Below are positions 1 through 62,663 of a stretch of 64,000 bases of DNA, piece after piece. How positions within the stretch are numbered: position 1 is the stretch's first letter; every line of letters starts with the position of its first letter. Under the pieces are notes generated by a model. The model was not told where the DNA came from. It ran no database searches and saw only the letters and a program-made list of their open reading frames with translations. The position numbers and the translations under genes were made by a program. Origin of the DNA: a virus; the IMG/VR virus record IMGVR_UViG_3300033153_001906, positions 1 to 64,000 of that record. One strand, 5' to 3'.

Positions 1-192
1 CGGCCATTCGTCTTCCCCTTTTAGTCTAAGTTCGAAAAATTCTTTTCTAGTTACGCCCGATATAACTGTATTTGTTATGTCTTTTCGTTTCTTAAAATGA
101 AGTACGACAATTTGAGAGAACGTGCCATCTTCTTGTTCTTCCCAAGATACCGTCCCTCCAATAATTGTTTCCGCCAACCAATCGTCTTCCAT
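1..192 (-). CDS. Small hypothetical protein, truncated at window edge, carrying the shared C-terminal tag
   Basis: Not in ORF track. Manual translation MEDDWLAETIIGG...ISGVTRKEFFELRLKGEDEWP runs off the window end. Confidence 0.65.
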   Translation of the reverse strand, partial: MEDDWLAETIIGGTVSWEEQEDGTFSQIVVLHFKKRKDITNTVISGVTRKEFFELRLKGEDEWP

Positions 193-338
193 GTTAGTGT
201 AACCTGCGATCACTACCGCATTGCTTTTTCTTTATCTTCTCTAATATGCTTTCCATTCTTAGCCACTCAGATGTGCCCTTTTCATAATTCTGTTGTGCTA
301 ATTTAAGGGCAATTCCAAGAATGGTTAATTCGTTATAA

Positions 339-632
339 TCAAACGCCGCCATTGTCAGTCTCTTTTAATGTGCCATCTAGTTTACGCTTAAAGTATTCTT
401 CTTTGGTGAGTTCTTCTTTAAGCACTTGCCGCGTCGATCCATTGGTAGCCACAACTACTTTGTAGCAATTGTAGTTTCCAGTTGGCGTTTGTTGATAAAG
501 ATAGTGATGATAGTCTTCATTGTATACGCCACGGGGTGCAATTTCTCTATTCTTATGTACCAATTTTATTCCCCCATATGTATGCATGTACTCGCGCAGA
601 TACATTGTATCCACGCTTGATTGTTTCTTCAA
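339..632 (-). CDS. Hypothetical protein with shared C-terminal tag (true start probably downstream of 632)
   Basis: Ends LTKEEYFKRKLDGTLKE; follows queE in the operon. Confidence 0.65.
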   Translation of the reverse strand: MKKQSSVDTMYLREYMHTYGGIKLVHKNREIAPRGVYNEDYHHYLYQQTPTGNYNCYKVVVATNGSTRQVLKEELTKEEYFKRKLDGTLKETDNGGV

Positions 633-1464
633 CTACTGCAATGGCATCTTCATCTTGCTGTGATTCAACTGTAGCACCTACTGGCATAATCCATATAGGC
701 CAATGAACACCGCAATTGCGGAAATCTTCAATACGTTCTTCTAGTTCGTCCCATGCCTCTGGTCGATTGCTAACAACAAACTTTAATTGGCCTTTGCCAG
801 TAATGTCTTGATAAGTTTTTACGATAGCTGGTTTGATTGCACGTTCTGGTTTTTCACCAGACGTATAAAGTAATTTTGGTGATACTGACCAGAACCACTC
901 GCCCCCACTTGCCACATATGATGCAACAACTCGCGCCAAATCATCACTTATTGACTGTGTACCATTTGTCTCCACCGTAATGAAGCGCGGAAGATTTTCT
1001 CTGTCTGCCATCGCATGTAACAGTTCGACTTGTCCTTGTTGAGCATTGGGCATCATTGGTTCACCACCCGTCATACAGAAGTGTACGTCTTTGACTTCTC
1101 TGTTAGATGGAAGTGAAAACTTCCCATCAGGATTGTTATTGAATGTAATCAATTGTTTTTCTATTCGTTTAGCAATGTCAATTGCTGTATGTTCAGGGCA
1201 TAAATGCTTGAATTTCTTAGCCCAACTGTAGCTTGAATCACAGCCCAAGTCCCAAACAGGCATGTCTTCTATTCTCTTTACTGTTGATACGTCAAACTTT
1301 TTGTATGGTAGAATGTGTGTGCTGCGTTCTTCTGGTTGATTCTGCCCAAACCCATTACACTGTAAATTGCACAAGAACCAACGTAACCAGACGGTTGGCG
1401 AGCCAGTATAGGCGCCCTCTCCCTGAATTGACGTAAAAATCTCACTGTATTTATATTTATTCAT
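553..1464 (-). CDS. queE: 7-carboxy-7-deazaguanine synthase, radical SAM
   Basis: SEIFTSIQGEG..G.PTVWLRW..CNLQC, CDS, TGGEP, VETNGT, SVSPK and C-terminal R.H..IWGN.IGT motifs. Confidence 0.92.
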   Translation of the reverse strand: MNKYKYSEIFTSIQGEGAYTGSPTVWLRWFLCNLQCNGFGQNQPEERSTHILPYKKFDVSTVKRIEDMPVWDLGCDSSYSWAKKFKHLCPEHTAIDIAKRIEKQLITFNNNPDGKFSLPSNREVKDVHFCMTGGEPMMPNAQQGQVELLHAMADRENLPRFITVETNGTQSISDDLARVVASYVASGGEWFWSVSPKLLYTSGEKPERAIKPAIVKTYQDITGKGQLKFVVSNRPEAWDELEERIEDFRNCGVHWPIWIMPVGATVESQQDEDAIAVVEETIKRGYNVSARVHAYIWGNKIGT

Positions 1465-1489
1465 TTAAATACCTCTTATCACTCTTTAC

Positions 1490-2038
1490 TCATTTGACGT
1501 ACATCCTTGCAGTCCATCCATCTTTCTTCTGATGGGGGTTGTTCTTATTCATACCACACCAATTTCTGATTGTTACCAGATGTACTTTGTAATGTAGTGC
1601 TGCTTCCCCTAGTGTACCAAACTGTAGTCCATCTGGTGTTGTTACTTCAACGCACTTTCTAGGCCGTTCATTCCAAGGCATATCTGGTCTTACTTCATCT
1701 AGTTCTACGAGTACAGGTAGCTTACGTTTAAGAAAATCTATTGCCTTTTGTACGCCTTCTAATGTATCTCCCAATCGACCTATCGCTGTATTGCAATGCC
1801 AGCACAGCAATCCTCTTACTGTTTTTGTGTCGTGACAGTGATCTACTGCAAGTTTTTGCGGCAAACCACATTTGACATTATATTCTTCGTGCCTGCCACA
1901 ACATGCGCACTTATGATCTTGCCCTTCTAATAAGAAGTAATATTGCCTTAACGAAATCCCAAACTCCTTTCTGAGTCTTGAATCTTGCTTTTTTGTATAT
2001 GGGTATACAGCATTTCCTATTTCTATTACCTCACCCAT
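1490..2038 (-). CDS. Endonuclease VII-type HNH endonuclease with C-terminal DNA-binding module (probable homing endonuclease)
   Basis: Q..KCACC, LAVDHCHDT..VRGLLCWHCNTAIG.LGD; C-terminal FGTLGEAA.HY NUMOD/HTH-like segment. Confidence 0.85.
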   Translation of the reverse strand: MGEVIEIGNAVYPYTKKQDSRLRKEFGISLRQYYFLLEGQDHKCACCGRHEEYNVKCGLPQKLAVDHCHDTKTVRGLLCWHCNTAIGRLGDTLEGVQKAIDFLKRKLPVLVELDEVRPDMPWNERPRKCVEVTTPDGLQFGTLGEAALHYKVHLVTIRNWCGMNKNNPHQKKDGWTARMYVK

Positions 2039-2294
2039 TACTTCACCCTCACTCCAAGTACTAATAATATAGTTTCTGCCCAGCGGCCAGTGTAGTACTC
2101 ACTTGCATTGCCACCAAGCATATCAAAATCCTCTTTCTTTCCTTGACACAACTCATTGTCTTCCATGTGCAACCAAGTCAATACGTCTTGATCGTCACCA
2201 ATATTCTTGAACGGTTCCCAAATAATAGGAAGCGGCATTATTGATTCTATCAAGTTGCGCACTTGCTCTGTTGCTTGTTCTTTAGTCAGTACCA

Positions 2295-2609
2295 TTAGTT
2301 GTTACCATCATGCAATCGACTAACAAATCGGTGCTTCTTAAAATAGTTTTCAATCTGTTTCGCAGTAAGCACACCATCATTCTTTTCCGCTTCTTTCAAC
2401 ATATATCTTTCGTGCCAATCAATGCTGCCATTACGAACTAGTTTCAATCGTTCATCAGATATAGGATGAAAGTTAACAGTACAATCTTGGCTTGCTGCGA
2501 CTAACCATGCGCCAGCAACGGCTTCTACGCCATTTTCATACTGAAATTTAAATTCCATTTCCAGCTTGTCCCCTTGCCGCAATTCAAAAAAATCTTTATT
2601 GTCGTCCAT
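2295..2609 (-). CDS. Hypothetical protein, likely leaderless mRNA
   Basis: ATG lies 5 nt downstream of a consensus TATAAT; no SD sequence. Confidence 0.65.
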   Translation of the reverse strand: MDDNKDFFELRQGDKLEMEFKFQYENGVEAVAGAWLVAASQDCTVNFHPISDERLKLVRNGSIDWHERYMLKEAEKNDGVLTAKQIENYFKKHRFVSRLHDGNN

Positions 2610-2653: not shown

Positions 2654-2923
2654 CTATTCTTCGCCCAATATCAGTTTACGTTTGAAATCATATTTGTCGT
2701 ATGCTTCGCGCAATGCTGCATAGTCTTCTAAATCTTTTTGACTCGGAGACTTAGCAAGAGCCATTGTCTCTCCGATTATTTCTAACAACGCACTATGGAT
2801 TTGTACAGCTTTGACCAATTCGTTAGTCACTTCAATGTACGTCTTTTCCATACGTTCGATCTTTGTTTCAAGACAGTCAACCGCTTGTACAACTTCGTCT
2901 ATATCACTCATCGCCAGCCACAC
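2654..2923 (-). CDS. Coiled-coil hypothetical protein, LREAY.KY family
   Basis: Ends LEDYAALREAYDKYDFKRKLILGEE. Confidence 0.7.
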   Translation of the reverse strand: MWLAMSDIDEVVQAVDCLETKIERMEKTYIEVTNELVKAVQIHSALLEIIGETMALAKSPSQKDLEDYAALREAYDKYDFKRKLILGEE

Positions 2924-3387
2924 TCACTGTAATTTCGTGGAAATCTTCTTCTGCTGTCATATACTCTGAGCAAAAAATTGTCTTGTGTTGTGTATGCTTC
3001 AATTTGTCTCTCCTTTCTCGCAGCACATAATCTATCATCATCCCAATACTCGTAACCATCGTACTTACCAGATAAATCTTGTAAGTAGTGTACCATTTCG
3101 TGAACGATAATGCTGTGCTGATATGGTGTCCATTCTCTATTAATTTCCCAGTACTTAGTATTTAGGTAAATTACAGCATCGACATCATCGTTATAGTATG
3201 CTCTGGCTACACATGGTTCTTTCTCTGTGTCGATGCCTTCGCAAAGTTTTTCTACAAAATGACTATGATCGGCGTAACGTATTTGTGGCATTACTTCTGG
3301 ATACTCATAGCCCGCAAGCAATGAAGCCCAACTCATTAACACTACAAGTATATCAGCCGTTATCGTCATCCTCATCCTCTTTTCCAA
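2908..3387 (-). CDS. Putative exported/membrane-anchored zincin-like metalloprotease
   Basis: Hydrophobic N-terminus; IVHEMVHYLQ (HExxH) with downstream E-AY. Confidence 0.6.
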   Translation of the reverse strand: MEKRMRMTITADILVVLMSWASLLAGYEYPEVMPQIRYADHSHFVEKLCEGIDTEKEPCVARAYYNDDVDAVIYLNTKYWEINREWTPYQHSIIVHEMVHYLQDLSGKYDGYEYWDDDRLCAARKERQIEAYTTQDNFLLRVYDSRRRFPRNYSECGWR

Positions 3388-3724
3388 TTAGTTCTTCTAA
3401 AAATTTGTACTTCTTATATGTCTCTCGTAGCATTTTATGCTTCTCTAGCTTGTCAGAATCAGGATCTGGTAGTATAGCTAATCGTTTTTCTATCGCATCA
3501 AGTCGTGCTGCCAAGTCTTTAAGTTTCCAATCATCCCCGTTCTCATCTGTAAAGACTAAATCACCCGTAACTGTCTCAGTCCATATTTGGGTATTATACT
3601 CAGTTCCATCATAAATGAGTATTTCATCATTGGCTGTATTGTAGTATGTGTCACCAATATTAGGAAGTTCAGTAATTTTGGTACTAGCCATTGAACAAAA
3701 CCTCAATGAGATCATTACATGCAA
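3353..3724 (-). CDS. Hypothetical protein, LREAY.KY family
   Basis: Ends LEKHKMLRETYKKYKFLEELIG. Confidence 0.7.
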   Translation of the reverse strand: MHVMISLRFCSMASTKITELPNIGDTYYNTANDEILIYDGTEYNTQIWTETVTGDLVFTDENGDDWKLKDLAARLDAIEKRLAILPDPDSDKLEKHKMLRETYKKYKFLEELIGKEDEDDDNG

Positions 3725-4799: not shown

Positions 4800-5059
4800 T
4801 TATCTTTTCCATTTGAACTTCGTTTGTCGCCAGCCAATTTAGCCTTAAATAACGCCTTCTCTGCTGCCTTTTCGCTGTAATACACGTTTTTATGAATTAC
4901 ATATTCAATTTTAGTTATAGGGTCACCATCCATGCGCACATACATCCACGGCACATCACGATCATCTTCCTCACCAAGCACTTCGCCTTTGTATAGCTTC
5001 ATATCTTCGAAGTGAACACACCAAACTTCTTGACGTTTTACATCTTTAAATACCATCAA
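4796..5059 (-). CDS. Hypothetical SH3-like protein with shared tag
   Basis: Ends AEKALFKAKLAGDK. Confidence 0.65.
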   Translation of the reverse strand: MMVFKDVKRQEVWCVHFEDMKLYKGEVLGEEDDRDVPWMYVRMDGDPITKIEYVIHKNVYYSEKAAEKALFKAKLAGDKRSSNGKDK

Positions 5060-5388: not shown

Positions 5389-5726
5389 TAAATAAGTCCA
5401 AAATCTCTTGTGGTGGATTCTCTAGTAAGTAAGAGTTATCCAATCGTGTAAAATAGGAAGTGCGCTCTTGTAGTTTCCATTCGCGTGACGCGCCTCGCCA
5501 ACCGCCTTTCTCGCAACGCTTAATCTTAACTTTGGTGGAGTCTTTTTGGTATTGGTTTTTATTTTCCACAGCTAAAAGTATTTTTGCTACCCGTAGCTCT
5601 GATCTGTGTCCATCTTGTGCTGCATATAGAATAATATCACCCTCAATAAGTGGATTATTCAATACGTCATACGCAATTGGATCATCACGTAACTTTCGCT
5701 CAAATAGTATTCTTTTTTTACTTTTT

Positions 5727-6125
5727 TCAGTCATCTTGTCCTAGTACAAGACGTTCAACCATCTTGTATTTCTTGTATGCCTCTCGCAGCATTTTATATT
5801 TCTTGAATGCTTCTTCATCTGGCAAGTCACTATCAAAGAGTACACCCATCTTCCGCATGCCCTCTTTCAGTTCTTCAAATTCGGCTTTCATTTCACGGCG
5901 CAATTTTTCAACTTCTGAAGTATTTACTTGCTCATTCATGTGTTGATTAAGAATTTTTTCAAATTCTTGCATCTGCTTTTTTTGCAAATCTTTCTTGATC
6001 TGATCCTCTGGTAAGATAATATTTGGTGGCATTATCTTTTTCTTTTGAGTTTCATACTCATTCATCATATCACGAAGTTCATCTGGAAGATCGTCGCGGT
6101 CATAATATGGATTGGCGCCTGGCAT
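5727..6125 (-). CDS. Coiled-coil hypothetical protein, LREAY.KY family
   Basis: Ends FKKYKMLREAYKKYKMVERLVLGQDD. Confidence 0.7.
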   Translation of the reverse strand: MPGANPYYDRDDLPDELRDMMNEYETQKKKIMPPNIILPEDQIKKDLQKKQMQEFEKILNQHMNEQVNTSEVEKLRREMKAEFEELKEGMRKMGVLFDSDLPDEEAFKKYKMLREAYKKYKMVERLVLGQDD

Positions 6126-6508: not shown

Positions 6509-6909
6509 TATTGAAGTCCTGAATCTGAGTCTGATGAAAAACTGATTAATGGTTTTGCAGAAGTATCGCGCAATGCTCTGCCAACTGCTTGCGTGTTGCT
6601 CGATGAAACACGTACTTCATCAATTGAGCCTGACAACCCCTTATTGTTTTCAAAGTCACCATTGAGTTTCTTCTTGAAGTATTCTTTTTTAGAGTACTTT
6701 GTAAATCGTAATGGGTTTCTGGAACCTGGTTGTGATGGGCCGTATTCGCCCTTGCGCCAGTAATTCTCAAACAACACTCGACCATGATTGATTTTAGTTT
6801 CGTCAACTGATGTTGGCAACCATGCAAATTTCTTGTGCCATTCTCGTTGAGAATTTATTTTCGCTTGTTTTCTGTAACTCTTTGGTGGTCTGTTTATATT
6901 AAATTTCAT
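6508..6909 (-). CDS. Hypothetical protein, W..F..P family, with shared tag
   Basis: EWHKKFAWLPT...YSKKEYFKKKLNG; start refined to MKFNINR. Confidence 0.65.
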   Translation of the reverse strand: MKFNINRPPKSYRKQAKINSQREWHKKFAWLPTSVDETKINHGRVLFENYWRKGEYGPSQPGSRNPLRFTKYSKKEYFKKKLNGDFENNKGLSGSIDEVRVSSSNTQAVGRALRDTSAKPLISFSSDSDSGLQ

Positions 6910-8392: not shown

Positions 8393-8670
8393 TGCATTTT
8401 ATCCTGTAGTTTGTCTATAAATACTTCTTTCTTGTTTGCATATGCTGTGTCTGTTACTGTGTACACTGGTGTCATGTGTGTTTTTGAATCATACTCGCCT
8501 AGTACTGATCCAAACCGTTCCCGTTTCCATGCCATACCAAATACTAATTTTCCTTTAACATCTGCTTTGGGGATAAAGACGAATGTACGTTCCCATTCTT
8601 CCCAATTAGAGAATTGCGCAGCCCTTATAATCTTGCGCCATTCTTTTGTATTTTTAATCATGTGTTCCAC
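8389..8670 (-). CDS. Hypothetical protein, W..F..PK family, with shared tag
   Basis: WEEWERTFVFIPK...YANKKEVFIDKLQD. Confidence 0.7.
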   Translation of the reverse strand: MEHMIKNTKEWRKIIRAAQFSNWEEWERTFVFIPKADVKGKLVFGMAWKRERFGSVLGEYDSKTHMTPVYTVTDTAYANKKEVFIDKLQDKMQ

Positions 8671-8888: not shown

Positions 8889-9164
8889 TCACACCACCAA
8901 GGCATCGTCTTCTCCTTTTAAATTGTTTACAAAAATTTCTTTCTTGTTTCGTGCATACTCTATGCCGTCTTTACCAGGGGACAGGTAGTATCCAATAGCC
9001 TCTTCGTATTCGCGCACACGGCCTTCTAGCATTCTCGTCCACGCCCATCCTATTATCTCTCGACCAGTAATGGTTTCTTTAGGGAGAAATAAAAAGGTAC
9101 GCTTCCACGGAGTCCATGTTAGTTCATCAAAGATGAGTTCATCAGGATCGCAGATGAGCGCCAC
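8889..9164 (-). CDS. Hypothetical protein, W..F..PK family, with shared tag
   Basis: WTPWKRTFLFLPK...YARNKKEIFVNNLKG. Confidence 0.7.
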   Translation of the reverse strand: MALICDPDELIFDELTWTPWKRTFLFLPKETITGREIIGWAWTRMLEGRVREYEEAIGYYLSPGKDGIEYARNKKEIFVNNLKGEDDALVV

Positions 9165-12142: not shown

Positions 12143-12493
12143 TTACCAACCCTGCCCGTTGTCTTTTAATGTTTTTACAAATACTTCTTTCTTTGTTGCA
12201 TATTGATAATAGTCATTACCTTTACCAGTCAAAACAAGTTTGTTTGATCGCTTATGAATATGCCCCCAAATTATTTTGCCACTAATAGATGACTTCCTGC
12301 TTTTCCAAGGCCATACCCAAATCTCTTGCCAATCATTCCATGAACCAGTAAATACTGCTCGTTGCATATACTGCATCGCCAATATGGACTTGCCAGTTCG
12401 TCTACCACAACTAATGATATGCAACTCACCTTTCTTTAAGCCACCCAATATATCTGCTTGCCATTGATATAAATTACTGTTGTCCATCAGCAT
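12143..12493 (-). CDS. Chimeric small protein: terminase/helicase Walker-A-like N-terminus, W..PWK domain and shared tag
   Basis: LYQWQ...IISCGRRTGKS then ...YATKKEVFVKTLKD. Confidence 0.65.
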   Translation of the reverse strand: MLMDNSNLYQWQADILGGLKKGELHIISCGRRTGKSILAMQYMQRAVFTGSWNDWQEIWVWPWKSRKSSISGKIIWGHIHKRSNKLVLTGKGNDYYQYATKKEVFVKTLKDNGQGW

Positions 12494-12795: not shown

Positions 12796-13176
12796 TTATT
12801 CATCTCTTCCTTCCAACTTCGCTTTAAAGAGTTCTTTGTTCGTTGCATACTCAACTATACGCATTTGGTGAGTTTCATAATTCCCACCAGAAATTGATTC
12901 TCTTATGCTTATCCATCTGCCCCGCATGTTGACACGCCCAAAAATAATTCTGTCATATATTGACTTCTTTGGTAGCATAATAAACTTTTTCTTCCAAGGC
13001 TCAACGAGGCTGTTGGGCTTGATGGTCAACATTTCACCCGCTGCCCCTGTCATTGGTTGCACATTAACTAAATCATTCGCAATCATTGACGGCGCAATTT
13101 TCCTAATCAATGGAATCAATTTCTTGCTATCTATTTTATTTGGATTATTCTTCACGAATCTTCTTCTCAAGCGCAT
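12796..13176 (-). CDS. Chimeric small protein: gp23 major-capsid-like N-terminal peptide, W..F..PK domain and shared tag
   Basis: LIPLIRKIAPSMIANDLVNVQPMTG then PWKKKFIMLPKKSI...YATNKELFKAKLEG. Confidence 0.7.
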   Translation of the reverse strand: MRLRRRFVKNNPNKIDSKKLIPLIRKIAPSMIANDLVNVQPMTGAAGEMLTIKPNSLVEPWKKKFIMLPKKSIYDRIIFGRVNMRGRWISIRESISGGNYETHQMRIVEYATNKELFKAKLEGRDE

Positions 13177-44340: not shown

Positions 44341-44369
44341 ATTATAACTAATTTTGCGGGGTTTGTCAA
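44341..44369 (-). promoter_or_regulatory. Sigma70-type promoter
   Basis: TTGACA-17-TATAAT. Confidence 0.85.
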
Positions 44370-44370: not shown

Positions 44371-45012
44371 CTATTTCCAAACGATTTCCGCTTGTCCTGT
44401 TTTCCGCAAATAGTCATTTATACTACTGAATGGTTTGCTCCCAAAGAATCCTCTATACGCAGAAAGAGGAGATGGGTGCGGCGCTTGTATTATAAGATGT
44501 CTCATGTGGTCAATTTGCGAAACTCGTTCTTGTGCTTTCTTGCCCCACAAGACAAACACCAAATTATTCCTCTTTATACTGAGCATCTTGATTGCTTCAT
44601 CAGTCAGTGCTTCCCAACCCCAGCCCTGATGCGATCCAGCTTTACCTTCTTGGACTGTTAGTGTGTTATTTATAAGCAAGACACCCTGGTCTGCCCAATC
44701 ACGTAAACTGCCGCAAGTTCGTTTTATGCCAAGATCGCTTTCCAATTCAGTATAAATGTTCTTGAGCGATTTTGGCAATGGTTCCACACATGCGTTAACT
44801 GAAAATGCTAAACCATTAGCATGACCAGCAGTAGGATAAGGATCTTGTCCAAGTATGACAACTTTCACATCATCAAATGGCAGCAAGTCAAATGCTCGCA
44901 TAATTTGATGTATTGGTGGAAAGATTGGTATGCCAGCATTGATAGACTCTGCAAGCTTATCCGCCACGATCTTGTCCCCACCTTTAAAAAATTCTAAATC
45001 AGTCCAGTTCAA
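44371..45012 (-). CDS. ung: Uracil-DNA glycosylase, family 1
   Basis: GQDPY, GLAFS, PKSL.NI, GVLL.N, LWG, HPSPLS. Confidence 0.95.
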   Translation of the reverse strand: MNWTDLEFFKGGDKIVADKLAESINAGIPIFPPIHQIMRAFDLLPFDDVKVVILGQDPYPTAGHANGLAFSVNACVEPLPKSLKNIYTELESDLGIKRTCGSLRDWADQGVLLINNTLTVQEGKAGSHQGWGWEALTDEAIKMLSIKRNNLVFVLWGKKAQERVSQIDHMRHLIIQAPHPSPLSAYRGFFGSKPFSSINDYLRKTGQAEIVWK

Positions 45013-45293
45013 TTTTTTAATCTCGCTGTAAATATTCTTTTGTTTGTCAATCTCATTACACCCAACAATGTTATGTTGGGGTTTTTGAAAACAGTTGCTT
45101 CAGTTTCGTGATATAAACTCAGTGCTTCCTCAGCAGTATTGTAAAGTAATGCATCACCCAAACGCGGACTATATGTAAATTGTAAATAAGAGCCAGCATC
45201 ATCGCTATAAAACGGATGAATTTTACATGGATAAGCAAAGGCATGACTTGTATTATCGCTACCCCTTGTTATGAATTTTAATGTATACTTCAT
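45009..45293 (-). CDS. Hypothetical protein with shared tag
   Basis: Ends LTNKRIFTARLKN. Confidence 0.6.
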   Translation of the reverse strand: MKYTLKFITRGSDNTSHAFAYPCKIHPFYSDDAGSYLQFTYSPRLGDALLYNTAEEALSLYHETEATVFKNPNITLLGVMRLTNKRIFTARLKN

Positions 45294-45541
45294 ACGCCCG
45301 CCAGTTTTGCTTTAAATATATCTACGTCAGCGATTGGTACTGCTGAGTAGTCTGACACTTGCCACATTGAATCCAGTACGTGTTGCATTACTTTTGGCTC
45401 ATGCTCAAATACGTGTGCTTCTGACAGTAAATATGTACCCTCTGGTGCATCATTGTGTCCAATGCTTTTGAAAAATGATATATCGAACCCATTTTTCTTT
45501 GCTTCGTTATCTCTGCTTGGTGTTATGAGTACATACTTCAT
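45290..45541 (-). CDS. Hypothetical protein with shared tag
   Basis: Ends IADVDIFKAKLAGV. Confidence 0.6.
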   Translation of the reverse strand: MKYVLITPSRDNEAKKNGFDISFFKSIGHNDAPEGTYLLSEAHVFEHEPKVMQHVLDSMWQVSDYSAVPIADVDIFKAKLAGV

Positions 45542-45891: not shown

Positions 45892-46036
45892 TATACGTTT
45901 TCTTTGCTTTTTCTACAATTATTTTGTGAAGTAATTTATTAGCTTTTTTGCTATCGCCATCGACAAGATACTCTAAGACTTGCGCCAAATCATCTTTGTA
46001 TTTCTTCTTATTTTTTTCTTGATCTAAGTATCTCAT
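45878..46036 (-). CDS. 52-aa helical protein, below ORF-track cutoff
   Basis: MRYLDQEKNKKKYKDDLAQVLEYLVDGDSKKANKLLHKIIVEKAKKTYNENL; start overlaps the upstream stop. Confidence 0.6.
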   Translation of the reverse strand: MRYLDQEKNKKKYKDDLAQVLEYLVDGDSKKANKLLHKIIVEKAKKTYNENL

Positions 46037-46254
46037 ATGTCCTTTAATCTAGCCTCAAATAATTCTTTCTTTGTAACTGAAACGATTTCATAACCATCAA
46101 CCTCACTTACAAAATATCGCATATCATGTATCGTCGCTTCACTCAATCTACTGGTCATGTGTGGTATATTGTCACGATGGTATCTATACTCACCATTTCC
46201 TGGATGCACAAAACGATGAACCCACTTAACAATCATGTTAGCCCCATATTGCAA
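46033..46254 (-). CDS. Hypothetical protein with shared tag
   Basis: Ends VTKKELFEARLKDI. Confidence 0.6.
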   Translation of the reverse strand: MQYGANMIVKWVHRFVHPGNGEYRYHRDNIPHMTSRLSEATIHDMRYFVSEVDGYEIVSVTKKELFEARLKDI

Positions 46255-47630: not shown

Positions 47631-47659
47631 ATTATAGCACATTGCGTACCATGCGTCAA
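47631..47659 (-). promoter_or_regulatory. Sigma70-type promoter, leaderless
   Basis: TTGACG-17-TATAAT with ATG 47625 five nt downstream. Confidence 0.75.
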
Positions 47660-47985: not shown

Positions 47986-48705
47986 TACTCTTCCTCTTTA
48001 AAGTACTTTAATGGAATTTCTTTGAGTCCAGCTAGTACTTTCTTGATTGTCCCTTTTGGGAGTTTTGTGTGATCGTGTAATAGTATAACTATTGTGTTGT
48101 GTCTCAATCCAGAGCTTTCCATACGTTCGACCATTTCCTGCATCTTGTACAGATCGTCACGCATGAGTACGATAGATTCGAATTTCTCAAACGTTCCGTC
48201 AAGTCGCTTGACAAACGCTTCTTTACTTTCTAATTCATCTTGGGTCATACTGTTGGCTTTTTCTTCTTAGATGCTGTTTTCTTTGATTTCTTCTTAGGTG
48301 CTGTTTCTGGCTTTGGCTTTGCTGTTGGCGCCGAGAGTTCTTTAATCTCAATGTCGCCATCAGGCGTCATTATTTCCGCATATTTGCTACCATCATCTCT
48401 TTTGCGAATAGTCTCAGTAGTTATTTCCGCATCTGGAATTGGTGTTGGCTCTGACTTGTCTTCGGGGGCAGTTTTTCCATCTGCTTGTGTCATTGCTTTC
48501 TTCAAGCTTGCTTTACCTACTTGTTTTGTGCCCTGGTATCGCGATTGTGCGCGTTCTTTGGCAGTCTTTACAACTTTTCCACCTTGCACAATATCGCCAT
48601 TGGCATTGACGCTCATGTTACCTGCTGCAATAGTCTTACTATTAGCAGTACGCATAGCCTCCATATCAATTGGCTTTCCTTTATTTGTTCTGTATTGTTT
48701 AGCCA

Positions 48706-49239: not shown

Positions 49240-52200
49240 AGGTCAAATACTATTATATCGGCTTCTTGGCCGTTTGTCAAGTATTCTTTTCCAATCTCCG
49301 CCAATGGATCGTCTTCGAACCATAATGTTAATTCTTCTCCATCCATGCCTTCCCTGCTGAATTCACTTACATCTATGGTTGGTCGTTCCCACCAGGGCTT
49401 ATCATGCACGGGAGACTCATATATGCCAATGTATTCAATTCCAGGAAGTGGGTATTTTTGTGCTGGATGAAGGTTTCTATAATTCCGTACTATATTTTCG
49501 GTATCTGTTGCTGATAGTGATATTGAATAAATATCGAGCAAATCTTTTGTGATAGCAGATAGCTTTGCGTGTAACACAACAGACAGCATTGAATCATCTG
49601 GCTGTCCTGGGATGAACATTACAGTGTTTGATGTATCGTCCACAACTGTTTCTAGTAGCTGTGAACCCACATCAATTAGAATAACATCACTTAGGACTGC
49701 TTCCATCCAAAGCTTGGCTCGTTGAAACCCAATTGCTGCGCGTTTTCCGCGTTCTTCAAGCGGCATAGCGTCCTTATCAACAGGCCCACATGCAACGTTT
49801 AGCGTGACAGTCGATGCTGATATTTTAGAACTGTCATCTTCTAGATAAATTCTATTTGCAGAGAATACGTGTGGTATGGTAATAAATGATTCGTGATCGT
49901 CTGTAGGAAATTCCATTATAAATCCCTGTGTTGCTTTACAATTACTTCTGCGCTCTTATTCTCCACTTCATCATAGTCCTTAACCTCACCTTCAATTTTT
50001 CCGATTTCAATTATTCCATCTGGATTCTTGGCAACTTCCATATCGTGCATACGTCTGAACATGCGTTCTTCTAGTTCGGCTTGATATACTATTAGCGCAG
50101 CGCGGGCACTATCAACCATGTGAGTATGCCCCCAATGCGTTTCTTGATACACGATAGTCGTGCATTTTTTAATCTTCTCTTGCAACTCATCGTCAGTGAG
50201 TTCAGTAGCGTCTATGAACGGATGATCCATCTTATGTTAGCAAGACTTCTAGCTTGTCCTTAATAGCCTCTTTGATTTCTGTGCCTTTTGGTGCAGAATC
50301 GTCAGCATTGATTAGTGTTGTAGTGGTCGTGCCTGTTGTAAAACCAGTACAGCTACCACCTAGCGTTGTGCTAGAACCACCTGTTAGCGTAATGCTAGTT
50401 CCTGACGATGTAGTTGTATTAGGTACTGTGTATGTTCCACCAGTAGTATACGTAGGTTGATGAATCCACTGAGGTGAACTTGTGGTTTGAGTCCAATCGC
50501 TATCAGTTTGCGTGAAGTGGTTTGGCTGTTCTAGCTGTGAAACTCTGCGTTGTAGCGAGTCGATGGTTTCCATCATTTTTGTAAATGGGCCTTCTTCCAT
50601 TTCATCGTCTGAAATGTTAAGGCGGACAAGAAACATGAATTTCTTGAGTGCTTTTGTGATTTTTGGATCATCGCTTGCACATGCAGCGTCTAAAAGTGTG
50701 ATAAATTGATTAAATTCGTCGTCAGTCATATCGTAAACTCCATTAAAGTATACGTTTATTTAGCAACGAAATTATGTGCGTGGTTTATTTCTCTGGATAT
50801 GCGTGTCGCATTTTCCCGACTTCCGCTTTTAGCGACGATGCATACAGGTGTGCAACTTCTCTATCATAGAATGTTGCGCTGAACGTGGACATTTCGTTGG
50901 GACACACGCCACAAGAGAATACGTCCCACGGCTCTAGTCCCTTTTTCCACTCAGTATGCCCCTGTAAATAGAAAAATGGCCGTTCATTGGCATCAATTTT
51001 TGGTACACTTTCACTGTCAACTGGTCGGAATTCAAGTTGAGTGTTGAGTCCACGCCAAGCTGTCACTATCGTTGGGCAATCGAGATGCTTGAGTCTAACA
51101 TTATATATTTTTCCATGTGCGCCTGCTTCAACATTTAGGTTTACTACCCAAACGTCGCGCAATCGCTCTCTTAGATCAGTGATTTGTTCAGGATATATGA
51201 CGCGGCGAGGCCAATCTGATTCGCCTTGATGAATTAGTTTGATTTTTGCTGCGTCAGATGGGTGTATGTCGGGGCCAGTCTGGACACGTAGGGGTTCTTC
51301 TGTTTCAAAGAGGGCAGCATTTTTAACAGCAGCAATGCTACCAATTGCTTCTTCTCGTTTCTTGTATAAGCGATTTATTTCTGGATCAGTTGTTAGCTTC
51401 CGCTTAAACGCATATCGTTTAGTAAACGTCTTACCCAATTTCCTCAAAATCTTCGTCCTCTGGTGCTACTTCCTGGATGTCATAGCGATCCATGATGTCT
51501 TTTATGCGACTCACAAGTGCAACATCACCCTCATATGAGCCAGTTGCGTAAAACATTTTCGCAAGGTCAGGAACCACATCATTCGGATCTGATGCAGGTG
51601 CAAGTTTTAGTAAGAACTTTATATCGTCCTTTACGTCTTCGAGGATATCTTTTGCCACGTTACTTCCTTAATTGTTTGTTGTTGCTAACCAATTTTCAAA
51701 TTCTGTTCTACCAGATTGCGTAAGAGACATTGTTACTATCTCCCCACCCTTTAACTTTCGTACTTCGTTATCTACGAATACTGAAAAACTATTAAAAGGT
51801 CGCAAGCAAAGCATATCACGTTGATGTCCGATGTATTCCAAATAACCTTCTTCGATTAATTCTTGTATCGTGTAAAAGTCACTATAGAACACAGTTTGTA
51901 GTACTTCACTTTTTCGTGAATCAGTAATAACTATTGCTGAATTTGTCCTCATTAAAAACTGTAATTCTGTTATACGGTCATTATCCATTATTATTTTCCG
52001 TTACATTCATAATTTATTTAGTATCTTCAAGCAAAAGTTGTATCAAAACAGATACACTACGCTGTGTTTTTCTCCTTGCATTGCCATAACCAATGCGAAA
52101 TTCTCTATTAACATCTTCTTTTATATACTCAACAGGGTCAGGATTCATGCTAACCTCGCCACCAAATACCGCAGCACCAGCTACAGTGCCAATTGCATCA

Positions 52201-55200
52201 GGGATGCTGTTTGCTACATTCTGAGTGCTTGCGCAACCAGTAAGTGCAATCAATGTTAAAATTATAACATAATTCTTCATTCTATGCAACCTTCATTATG
52301 TCTGCAATCACGATTACTTCACATTTTCTACGAAGTATTTTCCTGATTTTGCAAATATGTTCCATGCCATCATCAATTACTATAAACTCTAAGCCAACAC
52401 CCAAGATGAATAAGCTTTTGCATGTTTCGCTATTATCATCAAAGTCTTTGTGATAGCCGCGTGTTCGTTGCTTGTATGCGTTTGGTGTGCTACGCTTGCC
52501 CCACCATTTAATAGTCGAACAACGGTTAAGCCAATGTAAGCTAATGTGAAATTCAGTTGGCTCAACACCCTTCTTCACGTTTCGTGGCGGAGTCGGCCAA
52601 ACGTATCCTAGCATTCCTGATTTATATTCAACTGTTATCATCTTTAATTTCTACTATTTTCACGTTAGGTCTTGCTGTTCGTATTGCTTCAATCAATTCT
52701 TCTGGTGTTTCTCGCGCCAATGGACTTGCTGTACCAATCTTCTCTGCTCTACCATTGCATATCACAACACCGATGCCCGTTGTCAATAGCGTTCCATCGT
52801 TCTTGACAAAGCGCCAGCCGTCTGTGAATTTTCTGGCAGTATAAACGCCATTGTATCCATCGCCACTTGCGCTAACTCTCATCGACTACTTCCCAGCGGC
52901 CCAATCGTTTATCATGCCAATCATCTTTTCATTCAATTTGTGTGTATCATCAACTGCGTCGATGTTGAAGAAAATATTTGCGCCGAAGTGCCCGTTGTAA
53001 TCAACACGCGATACACCATCTAATACTTCCAATCGCGCACAGAGAGTTTCTTCCCACGTATCACATTCATCGTCACGCTTCTCTATTGCTAGATAATCTT
53101 TATCTTCAATTTCGTAGCAGTACGAGCGCATTGTTACGTTCAAGTCACCGATAGCCATTATCGTACCTTCGCATCAAAACGAATATCGTCAGAGCGAATC
53201 CACTCGTCCATTTCTGCAAAACCAGACTGGTAGACACCACCAATGCCGTGTCCTACCATGTGTTCAGTTCCCATGACTACATGCGGACGTATAATCGCAT
53301 CTGCTAATACCATCGTATGTGTTGCTTGTCCATCGTGCGCCCTGAACAGTTCTTTACCATTCGGATGCTTGAATTGAAAGACACCAGCAAACGTATCGTC
53401 GCCTTTGACGCATTGTGCAATTAAATTCAATGGAATCTTAACTGCATCTTTTCCCATCAGCATTTTCGTGTACATTTCTTCGTCCATTAATCCGTTCATT
53501 GTTAGCTCCCAAAACCCAAGTGAAGTTTATTTCCCTTCTTGTCTGCGCATTCAAGAAAGATGTGATGATCGTCACCACTGACATGAATGGCGGTATTCGC
53601 AAAGACTGCCAACTCTAGCCACGTTGGGTCAGTGATTGGATCGCTTTCGTATCTATTGTCTCCCCAACCACCATCGTATGCTATAGTGAATGTGCCCTTG
53701 TATGGAACTTCATCAAGGTTGTTAATTGGCATACCAACATCATCTGTTTCGTATGCAGAATAAGTGACTATGTGCGTATAAGATTCTTTTAACGCATTGA
53801 CGAATCGCTCTTTCTGTGTTCGACCAGGCTTAGTGATTGCTTTTTCGATTTGCGCTTCCATCTGATCGCAAATTTCGAAGTACACTTCATCATCATATTC
53901 TTCATGTATCATTTTCTACTTCCTTTTTCTTGCGTTTGTACATAGGCCCATTCGGGGTAAGTTCATAGTTCGGACACTCAATTTCAACGTGTTCGATTAT
54001 TTGTGGCAAGTCAAAATTGACTGTCATTGAACGCCAAACCTTCATGCCAAGTGTTGCACCTCGCCGAAACTTCCGCGAAGTTCTAATATCGTGTCTTGGT
54101 ACTTCTGTAAATGCAACTGTCTTCACTCTGTTTCATCTCCGTCTTTAAGTCTGCGAACAAACTTATCTTTTATGTTTTCTTTTACTGCCAAACTGTACTG
54201 TGCGAGTCTATACGCTCTCCAATTAGCCCTCCAGAAAAGGTTGTGTTCACTGTTACCAACCCATTTATCGGTAACAGGATCGAATATCTCGACTAGCCAG
54301 TTATGCAAGCATTCTTCGCGTAATGGTCTGACTCTCGTCCTCATTTGCATTCCTCTACTGTGAAGTGGAACGGGCAATCTTCCTCTTCATCGAAATTATT
54401 CGCTTGAATTTTACGATACAATATTATTTGTATATCGCCACACTTGATCTTATCAGTAAATGATCGCTTCGGCGTTATTTCCATCGTTTCAAGACGGTCT
54501 AACAGATCCTGCCATCCCATCATAACGCAGAGCGTTAGTAAATCTTTGCGTTTCCAAATTTCTTGTACTACCCCAAATTCTTCTTCTGGTCGCACACCAT
54601 ATTTTGAGTTTTTATCCTTCACAATATACTTCCAAAATCGAAGCGCGAACAGTAATCACCGTCGAGCCACCAAGCATACGCACAGCGGCCATATCATTCT
54701 TCATGCGTAGAACAATGCCAGTGCGAAGCGGCAAATACTCGGAAATGTAATCGAGATTGAAATGAACTATGTCGCCAACTTTCATTCTACGCCCATCGCC
54801 CTTAACTGATCTAAGTACGCTTTGTCAAATGTTAATGTCTTTGGAATGTCTGTCTTGCCACACTTGCAAGTACACCAGCAATTCCAAGTTTCCGTATTCT
54901 TGTCCTCTGAAACCTTCTTAACGCGCTCATCCGCAGTACACTTGTCTGCAAGATGTACACACGTAAATATGCTCTTTATCAGCATCTTGAGTGCGCGCAA
55001 TGTTTTCATATACGCATACCCAATGTACGTGCAAATCGTTTCTTTACACTAGTGCGCGCTGCATCTGCAATTGGATATATTCTTTCTGCAAGAAAATTGG
55101 TGAAAGTTCTTGCGTCGTGACCATACTGTTCTTTGTCAATAGACTTGCCAAGAAAAAACACTACGTCTGCAATGTATGTATCCTCTGAATACATATCAAG

Positions 55201-56715: not shown

Positions 56716-56744
56716 ATTATACGGTAGAATGAGGAGAAAGTCAA
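56716..56744 (-). promoter_or_regulatory. Sigma70-type promoter
   Basis: TTGACT-17-TATAAT. Confidence 0.78.
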
Positions 56745-56824: not shown

Positions 56825-58277
56825 TTATTTAGGTTTTACCACCCTTCGTCGCTGAATGTACGCCTATGCCCAATTGTCGCGCTACCATCGTCGGAGAATG
56901 CGTCCCCGTCAGCGACACGAACATAAAATACTGTATTTGAATCCCACACCTTTCTGGTTTCTGTTTCGGGAAACTTCAACTTTAGTTTGAATATATCTTT
57001 TTGACTACGTGTGCCAATAATCCATTTTGGACTGCTACGCTCCATGCATGTGCCATATGCAAATGTTGCGGACATGCTTGCGCACAAGTACATACGCAAT
57101 GCATTATCTGGTTCCATTGGGACTTCTACATTATTGATGATTCTTGGTTTATGACCAGGTATACACAACTTAACGAATTCTATTTCTTCCACAGATTGTT
57201 TCTGTGGTTGCCGAAAATCCCAACTATGCATCGGCTTGTCAAGCAATAAGAAACTAAAGCCATCGCCCCCGCTTATGTGTACATCAGAATGTAATGCAGT
57301 CCAGTCAGTCATACTTTTAGTTTCACTTTAAATAGATGCTTTTCAATATTCGCATCGGGTTCGTTTACTGTAATCATCACTTCGACACCATTTGGATACT
57401 TCTTTCTGTAGAAGCTGGGTGCATTACCCAAGGTCACTGTCCTGCCGTCGTCATATGATTCGTAGTTTTTTAATACTTTCTGTAAATTCTTTACACCCTC
57501 ACCCTTGATTTTCCAATTACCATATCCAAATTTTGTGTTAAACACAGAAGTAAGTGTACGAAATTGAGTAAAGCCAGTTAGAGTAAACTTACATGATGAT
57601 GTTTCACCATCATATTTTGGCACAGTCGGTAGCTTCGGCACCAGGATTATGTCGATCTCATTTAACTTGTCGTATATGTCGATTTTAGCTTTATCCAATA
57701 TGTGTTTGTTGCCACGCACCACACCAATATATTGTTTATCTCCCGACCTACTCTTGGGAATATTTGTGTTAAATTTACCATTTGATTCTATGTGTTTGGA
57801 TGTTAAACTCATCGCGTCACTGGAATCCCAACGGCGAAGAACCCGCGTATCAACATTAATTTCTCTAACCAAGTCGCTAACTCGTTTATATTCGTTTTGG
57901 GTTCTGTAATGAAATGAAATCTTCATAGTAGCTTTCCGCAACACATGCATTCACGAGGATCATCGCGGTTTGGATTTTTATCGCCATAATGGTACAAATA
58001 AACATGCTTTGAAACTGGTGATTCCTCACATGGCTTATCATTGTGTGAAATATAATCTTCTACTTCTAGTGTAGTCCAACAATGCATCTTGTCTGATAGT
58101 TTGGGTTTAAGTATTTTAATTAACAATTCGTTGGTTTGGTCTAGTCCTTCCCGATATTGTTTATAGTGTTCCCTGTATGTGTCATACATTTCTTGCGGGT
58201 CTTCACCATATTTTAGCCGCGCCTTGAACGCCACAAGTTGGGCCTTGCTTGCTTTTGGCTCTTTATCAGTCCAGCGT

Positions 58278-58850: not shown

Positions 58851-59293
58851 TTAGTATCCATATTTTAATTTGAGTTTGAATGCGCTTTTATCGTCCACGC
58901 GATAGACTGTTGGGCTATCTACGCTGGCTGCGATGCCAAATCCTTTCAATGCTACACAGACTTTTCCAGTGCTGCATTCGTGAGATTGGCTCCATGAAAT
59001 TAATTCAGCATTGCCATCGTAAATCAGGAAGCAGAATTGTCCAAACGGCACTGGCAGTCCATCAATGACAAGCAAATCATCGCGCACACTATAGAATCCT
59101 TCATCGTCCAGTTGTGAACGATCTACAATAAATGTGTTGGATTTGTGGTCTGCGTATAACAGAGGACATTGTTCATCAATATGAATTGACAAGGTGCGAT
59201 CATCGTCCATAACGTCGATTGTCGTATAAGCAGACGTATTAAGACATAAATTAGGAAAAGAGGCCATGATTACTCTAGTGTTAATGAGTTATC

Positions 59294-59322
59294 ATTATAC
59301 TACATGGTCAGGCGCGTGTCAA
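59294..59322 (-). promoter_or_regulatory. Sigma70-type promoter
   Basis: TTGACA-17-TATAAT. Confidence 0.85.
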
Positions 59323-60747: not shown

Positions 60748-60756
60748 GTATTTATC
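60748..60756 (-). promoter_or_regulatory. Late-type promoter GATAAATAC
   Basis: 4 nt upstream of ATG 60743, immediately after a terminator. Confidence 0.78.
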
Positions 60757-60766
60757 TTGAAAACAC

Positions 60767-60793
60767 AAAAAAGCCCCGCGCATTGGCGGGGCT
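60767..60793 (-). terminator. Intrinsic terminator
   Basis: AGCCCCGC-loop-GCGGGGCT hairpin plus T-run on the minus strand. Confidence 0.88.
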
Positions 60794-60817
60794 AGTTTAT
60801 TGTGCTACTATTTCTAG

Positions 60818-61345
60818 TTATTGTGCGAAACGTGCGCGCTTCAAACGCTCCATCAGTTCACGTTCCCACTTGTTGTACGTGAGGGTCAGCGGAGCAGTCT
60901 TGTTGTCGAACGTAATGCGAGTCTCCTCCAATAGATGATCGTAGACAACAACGTACTCATCATTCCACTTAGCTTCCCTCAGTGCTTGCACACCGTTGAA
61001 GATGCGCTCTGGCAGTATAGCTGCAACAGAAGTCAAGTTTCCGCCTTGCGACTCTTCCTCAGTGAAACCAACGAACGGAAAGTCGTTCTGGTGGCTCAGT
61101 ACTAGGCCATCTTCAAAGAATTGCAGCCAGCCAGTTACGTCTGCGAAAGCACCACCATTCAGACAAATGATCGTCTTGTGGTTCTGAACCCAATCAGACA
61201 CTTGTTCTGCGTATCCGTTCTGCCAGCCCGTTACGAGCAGGTACTTGCTGACAAGTTCCATAGAAGCATGACCAGACTGAATTCCCTGCTGTATTGAAGA
61301 CAGCATAAAGTCTGTAAATGTGTAACAACGTAGTTCTTCGTTCAT
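60818..61345 (-). CDS. Pth2-like (peptidyl-tRNA hydrolase II fold) phage protein
   Basis: LSSIQQGIQSGHA, W...KT.I.L.GG, F.E....G..T.VA..P. Confidence 0.55.
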   Translation of the reverse strand: MNEELRCYTFTDFMLSSIQQGIQSGHASMELVSKYLLVTGWQNGYAEQVSDWVQNHKTIICLNGGAFADVTGWLQFFEDGLVLSHQNDFPFVGFTEEESQGGNLTSVAAILPERIFNGVQALREAKWNDEYVVVYDHLLEETRITFDNKTAPLTLTYNKWERELMERLKRARFAQ

Positions 61346-61780
61346 GTTTTTTCCTCTGGTCGTTCTTGGTCAGCGCACACATCTAAATCTACAATATGTG
61401 CATAATATTTTTCCATACAAGTATTGATATACTGTATGATTTCCATTTGTTGCTCAATGCCTGGACGCTTAATACCCTGCATCTTGCTACTTTGAAAGCG
61501 CAGCTTAACTCTTAATGAATCGAGTTTCACCGTACTTTACTCCAAGCATCTTTGCTAAATGTACCAGTTTGACGAGGATCAAAGTCTTCCTCATCATTTT
61601 CAAGTGCGAGGGTGCGCAGCGTGTGCGTACCAATTTCAAGTTCACGTACTGCGAACTGTGCTACCCGCAGTTCTTTTTCAAGAGTGCGAATGCGCTCGTC
61701 TTTGATGTTAATGTCAACTTTTGCATCAATCAACTTGCGCTGCAATACGTCAATCTGATTGTTTAGTATTTCAGTTTTAG

Positions 61781-62068
61781 TCATAATATTACCTCTTTGG
61801 CTAAAGTCCCATTTAGCCGCCTCTTAAATAACTCGTTATCAGTTATGTCTTCGCCCCACACATCGTAGTGTCTCAATGGGCAAGTCTTTCCCTGCTTCCA
61901 AAATGCTAGTGGTAGTTGCTCTAGCGCATCATCTGAGTAGCCATTATGCTCTCCCCAAATCATGTACAATTCTTTCGCTTTACCCTTCTCCACTTCGCAC
62001 GTTAAATTAAAAATCACTTCTTGAATGTCTGGTCGCATACCCCTTGCTCTGCCAATAAAATATTTCAT
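61781..62068 (-). CDS. Hypothetical protein with shared tag
   Basis: Ends ITDNELFKRRLNGTL. Confidence 0.65.
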   Translation of the reverse strand: MKYFIGRARGMRPDIQEVIFNLTCEVEKGKAKELYMIWGEHNGYSDDALEQLPLAFWKQGKTCPLRHYDVWGEDITDNELFKRRLNGTLAKEVIL

Positions 62069-62352
62069 AGATTATTCCAAGATCGTATCATCTGTCTTGG
62101 ATCACCACTAAGATCAACGTATCCATCTTCTGCTTTTCCTTGCAGAATCAGCTTGAACCAAACAGACTCAGTAATTTCTTTGCCATGCATTACAAAACTT
62201 GGCTCGCCTGGCATGGACACAGTGTTTCCAGTGTCGAACAGTTCTTGTCCGCGATCATTACCACACCACATTTGATAGAAGTCTAACGCATAATTTTCCT
62301 TAATGCGCTTTGGCTTGCTCTGTCTGTGTTCCATAAAGTAAATCATTTCCAA
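62065..62352 (-). CDS. Hypothetical protein with shared tag
   Basis: GKEITESVWFKLILQGK. Confidence 0.6.
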   Translation of the reverse strand: MEMIYFMEHRQSKPKRIKENYALDFYQMWCGNDRGQELFDTGNTVSMPGEPSFVMHGKEITESVWFKLILQGKAEDGYVDLSGDPRQMIRSWNNL

Positions 62353-62663
62353 ACCTTTTGCTCAATGTTTCCTTCCAATCTCTGTTTAAACAATTCGCTA
62401 TCGTTCCACTCTCTGCCTTCAATGAGAAGTCCCATGTGATGAACGTTGGTAAATTGACCACGTTCAAATAATCTTATCACACGCTCCTCAGATTCTTCAT
62501 TCTCTTTACCACTCAATTCGTACAAATATTTTGCTCTCTCATACGAAACTTCAAACCATTTGTTTTTCCCAAATCGAAATCCATCAATTCGTACTGCTCT
62601 AACTTGTCTCGCAAAATATCTCATACTACGATTGGGGCCTTTCCTTGAAATACACGGATCCAA
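62343..62663 (-). CDS. Hypothetical protein with shared tag
   Basis: GREWNDSELFKQRLEGNI. Confidence 0.65.
   Translation of the reverse strand: MDPCISRKGPNRSMRYFARQVRAVRIDGFRFGKNKWFEVSYERAKYLYELSGKENEESEERVIRLFERGQFTNVHHMGLLIEGREWNDSELFKQRLEGNIEQKVWK

Follow-up and report, generated by a model that had tools for sequence, protein, structure and literature searches.

The stretch of DNA analysed here, called the window throughout, comprises the first 64 kb (positions 1 to 64,000) of the linear virus record IMGVR_UViG_3300033153_001906, which is 119,174 bp long and estimated to be 44% complete. The window has a guanine-plus-cytosine (GC) content of ~41%, and nearly all of its genes lie on the '-' strand. 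Many of its small genes encode proteins that carry the same short peptide motif, which a first-pass annotation of the window had described as a mostly C-terminal tag on otherwise unrelated proteins, and had interpreted as a docking helix that plugs its carriers into one hub. Using our own simple codon-bias caller, we kept 196 genes on the whole record, 192 of them on the '-' strand; genes are named below by their lower coordinate. All of the 21 peptides listed in the annotation were found in their open reading frames (ORFs) on the '-' strand, and its carrier list had missed the variants in 2295, 2654, 3353 and 5727. Two related records were taken whole for comparison, G001 (347,232 bp, 94% complete, DNA polymerase 53% identical to that of the present record) and G002 (93,364 bp, polymerase 65% identical), and six genomes were compared in all, three of which are fragments.

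The motif and its copies in the window

The consensus spans 13 residues, h-[TSND]-x-x-[EQD]-h-F-x-x-[KR]-L-x-G, where h is hydrophobic, positions are counted from the F, and +1 is often [KV]. The motif opens with an N-cap residue and an acidic capping-box residue, closes on a Gly stop, is usually followed by a short polar tail, and forms a helix in predicted models (AlphaFold2, for 8889 and for a protein family of G001 described below). The enrichment that had been claimed for it held up against shuffled sequences. In its original wording the pattern occurs 4 times in 196 proteins, with 3 occurrences within the last 30 amino acids (aa), compared with 0.0 in 500 composition-preserving shuffles, and the core F..[KR]L.G occurs 13 times in the 196 proteins vs 0.9 in shuffles. 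The looser F..[KRNT]L.[GDN] was counted 26 times vs 5.3 shuffled (maximum 13) over full-length proteins, and 15 times vs 0.63 (maximum 4) within the last 30 aa.

A six-frame profile search of the record returned 22 matches, all of which (22/22) lie in coding frames on the '-' strand. Six kinds of Leu codon (TTA, TTG, CTA, CTG, CTT, CTC) are used at +4, and K/R at +3 is likewise written with six codons, which shows that conservation is at the peptide level, as the annotation had supposed. The same codon data contradict the idea that the motif arises incidentally from a nucleotide element at the 3' ends of genes (e.g. a Shine-Dalgarno sequence, a promoter or a recombination site). K and F codons are indeed A/T-rich, and Gly codons can resemble a Shine-Dalgarno sequence, but the spacing between the +6 codon and the next called start varies from 4 to 63 nt, with -44 in one case, and the N-terminal and internal copies, together with the confinement of profile matches to the coding frame and strand, fit such an element poorly; we give this explanation next to no credence, the least of any considered here.

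The position of the copies was tallied for 24 of them in the record, with 16 being C-terminal, 4 N-terminal and 4 internal. The description as mostly C-terminal applies to 16/24, but not to 6508 (56 aa from the end), 56836 (51 aa) or 57923 (residue 25), and the copy in 62065 is weak; an N-terminal copy had been noted correctly in 47985, and those in 5369 and 50785 had been overlooked. In the 16 C-terminal carriers the tails past +6 consist of 1-10 variable residues, and the D+E content of these tails is 25%, compared with 14.5% in the proteome. This differs from an ssrA-like placement at the extreme C-terminus, and a terminal degron was rejected in view of the variable tails past +6 and the 4 N-terminal and 4 internal copies.

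Two further local explanations bear on the chemistry of the motif. A membrane-binding amphipathic helix of the MinD/FtsA type would be in keeping with the basic residues around the F/L pair, and with the fact that some carriers have the motif behind transmembrane segments. The mean helical hydrophobic moment over positions -4 to +5, at 0.25, is lower than that of the same residues when shuffled (0.36), there are only three hydrophobic positions, and the version found in the G001 family is acidic; a membrane-type amphipathic helix was excluded because its moment falls below the shuffles, and we attach hardly any probability to it. The L-x-G segment might alternatively be a protease processing site, e.g. 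for the RadC-like JAB protein encoded among the carrier genes, so that the variable tail would be removed. Such a role would suit the strong conservation of Gly at +6, the variable polar tail behind it, and the distribution of the JAB gene, which has a homologue in G001 and none in GAP32 or 2.275.O (relatives introduced below). However, Gly +6 is replaced in several copies by D, N, K or a Y-G pair, the N-terminal and internal copies would imply cuts inside the protein, and the co-occurrence with the JAB gene comes from four genomes only, all of which makes processing very improbable. Mobile elements often encode RadC-like proteins, which are not known to have a peptide substrate.

With a hidden Markov model (HMM) of the motif, 19 of the 123 called genes in the window pass the cut-off, and their distribution is uneven (Table 1). 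Carriers make up 9/30 genes at 1-13.2 kb and 10/49 at 44.3-63.1 kb, compared with 0/41 at 13.1-44.4 kb, where the polymerase, ClpA and virion genes are located; the absence from core genes that had been noted at the outset is thus borne out. Here the motif is found on about a fifth of the small early-type genes. Promoter-like sites of the sigma-70 type at the heads of carrier blocks are suggestive of an early-type operon placement, and suggestive only, because the total of such sites in the sequence is not above that in shuffles. Beyond the window, the record contains five more copies at 65198, 82616, 85210, 87037 and 87458, plus one at 84821 detected by position weight matrix (PWM).

Table 1. 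Copies of the motif, promoter-like sites and genes discussed in the text (positions in the window, or in the record where stated)
Feature	Position	Strand	Gene	Remarks
T-R-K-E-F-F-E-L-R-L-K-G	16..51	-	1-213	ORF running off the window start; from translation
Motif, F 17 aa from end	369..416	-	339-632 (97 aa)	Profile 21.5 bits
Weak variant F-V-S-R-L-H-D-G, C-terminal	2304..2351	-	2295-2609	Score 10.4
Variant K-Y-D-F-K-R-K-L-I-L-G, C-terminal	2663..2710	-	2654-2923	Paralogue of 3353 and 5727
Motif	4826..4873	-	4796-5059 (87 aa)	Profile match
N-terminal motif, F at residue 11	5681..5728	-	5369-5734	Profile match
Internal motif, 56 aa before end	6655..6702	-	6508-6966	Profile match
Motif	8398..8445	-	8389-8670	Group A; profile match
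Motif	8910..8957	-	8889-9164	Group A; AlphaFold2 helix 74-87; profile match
Motif	12158..12205	-	12143-12493	Group A body with different N-terminus; profile match
Motif	12805..12852	-	12796-13176	Gp23 N-terminal fragment plus group A body; profile match
N-K-R-I-F-T-A-R-L-K-N, then stop	45012..45056	-	45009-45293	
Motif	45293..45340	-	45290-45541	Profile match
Motif	46036..46083	-	46033-46254 (73 aa)	Profile match
N-terminal motif, F at residue 12	48192..48239	-	47985-48248	Profile match
N-terminal motif, F at residue 14	51385..51432	-	50785-51447 (220 aa)	Profile match
K-D-K-F-V-R-R-L-K-D-G	54138..54185	-	54123-54377	Non-seed, score 22.6; profile match
Internal motif, 51 aa before end	56974..57009	-	56836-57312	12.3 bits
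Last 16 codons, ending E-K-H-L-F-K-V-K-L-K-V	57312..57359	-	57309-57950	Without Gly
N-proximal motif, F at residue 25 of 125	58205..58252	-	57923-58300	Profile match
Motif directly after last hydrophobic (membrane) segment	58299..58346	-	58278-58850	Profile match
F-K-L-K-L-K-Y-G	58857..58904	-	58851-59267	Profile match
Motif	61805..61852	-	61781-62068	Group B; profile match
Weak W-F-K-L-I-L-Q-G, 30 aa before end	62137..62172	-	62065-62352	Score 11.5
Motif	62367..62414	-	62343-62663	Group B; profile match
Perfect TTGACA-17-TATAAT (12/12)	44341-44369	-		Intergenic gap
Promoter-like site (11/12)	47631..47659	-		Heads block with carriers 46033, 45290 and 45009
Perfect TTGACA-17-TATAAT (12/12)	49252-49280	-		Intergenic gap
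Promoter-like site (11/12)	56716-56744	-		Heads block with carriers
Perfect TTGACA-17-TATAAT (12/12)	59294..59322	-		Intergenic gap; upstream of five consecutive carriers, 58851 down to 56836
Family B DNA polymerase	16274-19222			Matches PHROG 262
ClpA-like ATPase (763 aa)	28257-30548			
DnaJ	30569-31375			J domain and DnaJ C-terminal domain; directly upstream of ClpA
RadC-like JAB protein	56331-56684			Among carrier genes
ClpP	67252-68037 of record			

Relatedness and predicted structure of the carriers

The carriers had been called unrelated, a statement that stands for many of them, since 46 carriers from three genomes fall into 39 BLAST components once the motif is masked, but not for all. 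BLAST delimits three paralogue groups within the window, namely group A (8389/8889/12143/12796, joined by 6508 in alignment), group B (61781/62343, possibly with 339), and a third made up of 2654/3353/5727, and G001 holds a family of 90 members. The remaining window carriers are singletons, also when searched by jackhmmer against the 842 proteins of three genomes. Visual inspection of the sequences suggests that beta-rich, all-alpha and multi-pass membrane types are represented among the carriers. Pfam and PHROG scans of 27 window carriers yielded stray matches only, with the exception of a fragment of the major capsid protein Gp23 in 12796. This gene is chimeric, with the Gp23 fragment at residues 18-60 (Pfam E 9e-8) followed by a hairpin-plus-helix body, and 12143 is chimeric as well, having a weak P-loop-like start (E about 0.03) ahead of the same hairpin-plus-helix body. 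As a separate observation, the trio 2654-2923, 3353-3724 and 5727-6125 has a longer C-terminal stretch in common, R-E-A/T-Y-K/D-K-Y-K/D-F/M...L-x-L/I-G, that resembles a variant of the motif.

G001 has the largest carrier set, and a jackhmmer search started from one of its carriers collected 91 proteins with nearly full-length alignments, 90 of them in G001 itself (90/545 called genes). These are proteins of ~100 aa whose genes form tandem arrays (roughly 16-38, 51-83 and 201-225 kb), and a loose core of the motif lies within the last 45 residues in 77/91; among all G001 proteins, F...L.G occurs 68 times in the last 40 residues vs 4.3 shuffled. From an alignment of 87 rows (three members that straddled the borders of 20-kb pieces were left out), AlphaFold2 predicted five strands followed by a helix at residues 92-101, which is the motif, with a predicted local distance difference test (pLDDT) score of 83 and a predicted template modelling (pTM) score of 0.73. 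The barrel weakly resembles SH3, Tudor, FeoA and Hfq domains (Foldseek best E 0.08, probability about 0.9), its best VIA Z of 6.3 being within the background range of that tool, and the aligned ranges of the fold matches mostly stop at model residues 87-95, short of the motif helix. A Pfam scan of the 87 family members gave 0 matches. The family is rare: at E <= 0.001 its profile matches 194 out of 1.84 billion representative proteins, and the loose core is near the end in 101 of the best 150 of those 194.

When the window carriers 4796, 339 and 46033 were compared by hhalign with the 87-row family profile, only 14-22 columns aligned, all of them motif columns and at low probability, and the group A profile gave no significant alignment to the G001 family, the 19 aligned columns being outside the motif of group A. 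Structure prediction for individual window carriers provided leads only. In an Atlas model the body of 4796 resembles a Tudor-knot/chromo-like barrel (TM score 0.57), and the Atlas neighbours of 45290 appear to be without the helix, because they align to residues 1-70 only and are themselves 65-71 aa long. The AlphaFold2 model of 8889 is of moderate quality (pLDDT 62), and a search of the PDB with it found no neighbour (best Foldseek E 2.1). Carriers 58278 and 87458, and a related membrane-protein family of G001 (226671-228261), have the motif behind their last membrane segment; this family, to which 87458 belongs, is separate from the barrel family and likewise ends in the motif.

Conservation, dialects and phylogenetic range

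Within sets of orthologues the motif is the top window in two of three. In the 45290 set (11 orthologues, down to 45% identity) it is the best-conserved window, scoring 0.88 vs 0.57 for the rest of the protein, and F-K-A-K-L-A-G is identical in 10/11 rows, with one A-to-K change. In the 47985 set (52 rows, i.e. the window protein and 51 orthologues) the N-terminal motif is the best window at 0.97, with F12, K14, R15, D17 and G18 present in 52/52 rows; the 47985 protein appears all-alpha by eye from its sequence. An N-terminal position is also kept in the orthologue pair 5369 and G002_40021.

The individual genomes have preferences of their own at the variable positions of the motif, which we refer to as dialects. 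K at +1 is found in 8/12 strict copies of the present record, compared with 0/21 non-family and 0/25 family copies in G001 and 0/8 in G002, and S at +5 is found in 0/12 copies here, compared with 8/21 non-family and 13/25 family copies in G001 and 0/8 in G002. Recent gene conversion is not the source of these dialects, because codons differ between copies. ClpA, one 263-aa late protein and the RadC of G001 were dropped from the counts; the ClpA stretch P-E-F-R-N-R-L-D-G and the motif-like stretch in G001 RadC are presumably ordinary parts of their own families, going by the family consensus.

The best named relatives of the polymerase, at ~39-43% identity, are those of giant myoviruses, i.e. 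Sinorhizobium phage Phosso, Agrobacterium phage Atu_ph07, Vibrio phage 2.275.O, XbC2 and GAP32. A megablast search with 20 kb of the window against GenBank phages produced no match, and a scan for loci related to the 474-aa protein at 59319-60743 gave no relatives; a scan of viral contigs with the polymerase returned 15 loci at 28-80% identity, some of which have the motif. A 16-column profile search proved unreliable across the fetched genomes (0-1 weak matches per cultured relative, and only 4 in G001, compared with 20-36 by local scans) and was not used, and the range was judged instead from regular-expression counts against shuffles. By this measure F..[KR]L.G is strongly enriched in G001 (36 vs 1.9) and G002 (7 vs 0.4), at chance in Vibrio phage 2.275.O (2 vs 1.9) and GAP32 (1 vs 2.1), and slightly raised in Atu_ph07 (9 vs 3.4). 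Because it is near chance in 2.275.O and GAP32 and only slightly raised in Atu_ph07, the motif is a trait of an uncultured clade. In Atu_ph07, three proteins of ~100 aa (93253-93594, 115227-115553 and 316664-316969) end in F-x-x-R-L-[DN]-G-[LI], and could represent a minor occurrence of the motif in a cultured phage.

A proposed shared contact, a possible structural cap and candidate readers

The reading towards which we lean, tentatively, is that the motif is a portable interaction helix, a contact surface read by one common partner in each phage. A clade of uncultured T4-like giant phages would, on this account, possess a large and fast-diversifying set of small early proteins in which the helix is the part that stays constant. 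The variable bodies would all be handled alike via the helix, i.e. recruited, localised or turned over, and the role of partner could fall to a protein of the phage or of the host, or to the carriers themselves. A shared contact fits better than a purely structural cap, because the motif is found on different folds, at either terminus and in post-membrane positions, ranks first among the windows of two of the three sets of orthologues, and has dialects that do not stem from recent gene conversion. The docking helix originally put forward is supported in part, as a short peptide module on dissimilar bodies, and no hub was found for it.

Several results weigh against a shared contact. No partner was found, and across the six genomes none of ClpA, ClpP and DnaJ co-varies cleanly with the motif. 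Most G001 carriers belong to the single full-length paralogous family, and in the model of that family the helix follows directly after the last strand with a pLDDT of about 90, as would be expected of an integral helix. The window carriers have no linker between body and helix, and the helix stops short of the extreme terminus, with 1-10 residues lying beyond +6; in both respects they differ from most docking tails. In the 8889 set the motif (0.87, rest 0.73) is less conserved than the hairpin W-K-R-T-F-L-F-L-P-K (0.98). The dialect counts are small, and some G001 carriers counted as 'non-family' may belong to the family without having been recognised; within G001, moreover, whether the first half of the helix is acidic or basic follows the family and not the genome.

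These points lead to the principal rival, in which the motif would be structural only, a capping helix of an ancient superfamily of small barrels that has diverged beyond recognition, with a few shuffled exceptions and without a common partner. We judge this to be the less likely of the two, yet it remains strong, because the largest carrier set is one paralogous family with the helix beside the barrel, no linker, and no reader found. The confident five-strand model, the weak SH3/Tudor-like resemblance of its body, the Tudor-knot/chromo-like lead for 4796 and the paralogue groups within the window would all suit it. Against it, only the motif aligns between the window carriers and the family, it stands at the N-terminus of the seemingly all-alpha 47985 protein and is the most conserved window there, it also occurs behind transmembrane segments, and the neighbours of 45290 seem to do without the helix. 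The orthologue sets, furthermore, conserve more than the hydrophobic h, F and L, as in the F-K-A-K-L-A-G of the 45290 rows, and the genome dialects are common to dissimilar bodies. The annotation had named full-length paralogy of all carriers as one outcome that would speak against its proposal, and this was found in part in G001, with its 90-gene family.

A more specific version of the shared contact, which we regard as possible although unlikely, holds that one receptor per phage, either phage- or host-encoded, handles the library of early proteins (~25 on the present fragment and >90 in G001), and that tag and receptor co-evolve into the dialects (K at +1 here, S at +5 in G001). If a single helix marks a fifth of the small early genes, and a sixth of all genes in G001, much of the repertoire for host takeover would be organised by one reader. 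The early genes of giant phages are for the most part orphans, and the reader, if found, would open up dozens of uncharacterised proteins together. Should the helix prove to be purely structural, the 90 tandemly arranged barrel genes would still represent a lineage-specific expansion of unusual size for a bacterial virus.

Among the candidate readers, the phage-encoded ClpA-like ATPase and ClpP raise the prospect that the motif is a degradation or tethering signal, with the early proteins being either short-lived or adaptors. The DnaJ gene adjoins ClpA in all three motif-bearing records (here, G001 and G002), and the carriers lie in early-type operons, as such a signal would lead one to expect. 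However, homologues of both ClpA and ClpP are encoded by GAP32 and 2.275.O, where the motif is at chance, the motif is not at the extreme terminus and has variable tails, and in one confident model the helix is folded beside the barrel, so that we consider the signal improbable. ClpA as the hub, one of the annotation's candidates, loses its appeal for the same reason of distribution, and DnaJ fares no better, being absent from 2.275.O, XbC2 and GAP32 but present in Phosso and in Atu_ph07, the latter with hardly any enrichment of the motif. A phylogenetic profile gave 20 proteins common to the record and G001 and absent from GAP32 and 2.275.O, a comparison with little power given six genomes, three of them fragments; those that could be named are the RadC-like JAB protein, MazG, a metallophosphatase and DnaJ, none of which is convincing as a reader.

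Full-text literature searches turned up no description of this motif. Passages of a review of jumbo phages (PMC7824862) mention ClpA, ClpP, DnaJ and a zinc-ribbon expansion in phage G, but not the motif. Cases in which many proteins carry one short peptide that is read by a single partner are already known, and the present motif differs from them in sequence, position, and the number and kind of carriers. The capsid-targeting sequence of T4 is a short N-terminal peptide on unrelated small late proteins that are packaged, and it is removed by the prohead protease. It is similar in being a short peptide common to unrelated small proteins of a T4-type phage, but the motif described here is C-terminal in 16/24 copies, is located in early-type operons, and is found in 0/41 genes of the replication and virion block. 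Beside this system, we noted that four unrelated proteins, encoded at 20136-20408 and 32984-33499 in the window and at 71209-71718 and 105843-106223 in the record, have near-identical N-terminal stretches of 16-25 residues (BLAST), which may be a tag of the capsid-targeting type.

Other comparisons are with peptides that bring several proteins to one hub. The clamp-binding C-terminal tails of T4 gp43, gp33 and gp55, and the clamp-binding peptides of bacteria, do so from the extreme C-terminus of a few replication and transcription proteins, unlike the present motif, which is on dozens of small proteins without an assigned function. The C-terminus of the DNA polymerase encoded by this phage, ...E-E-L-F-D-F-S, is not a copy of the motif. 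In the ankyrin-repeat families of poxviruses, a C-terminal PRANC/F-box-like helix docks on host Skp1; these are likewise large and fast-diversifying viral families with a constant short helical handle and a variable body, but they differ in kingdom, fold and sequence, and the handle considered here is of ~13 residues and is also N-terminal and on membrane proteins. The tethers of AAA+ adaptors, e.g. the C-terminal ClpX-binding peptide of SspB, consist of a long flexible tail on one or few adaptors. They resemble the motif as short terminal peptides on a variable protein, and this phage encodes ClpA and ClpP, but neither of these co-varies with the motif, and there is no flexible linker before the helix.

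As a minor observation on the block between the two carrier regions, the adjacent genes 31449-31808 and 31805-32254 both match PHROGs of Rz-like spanins.

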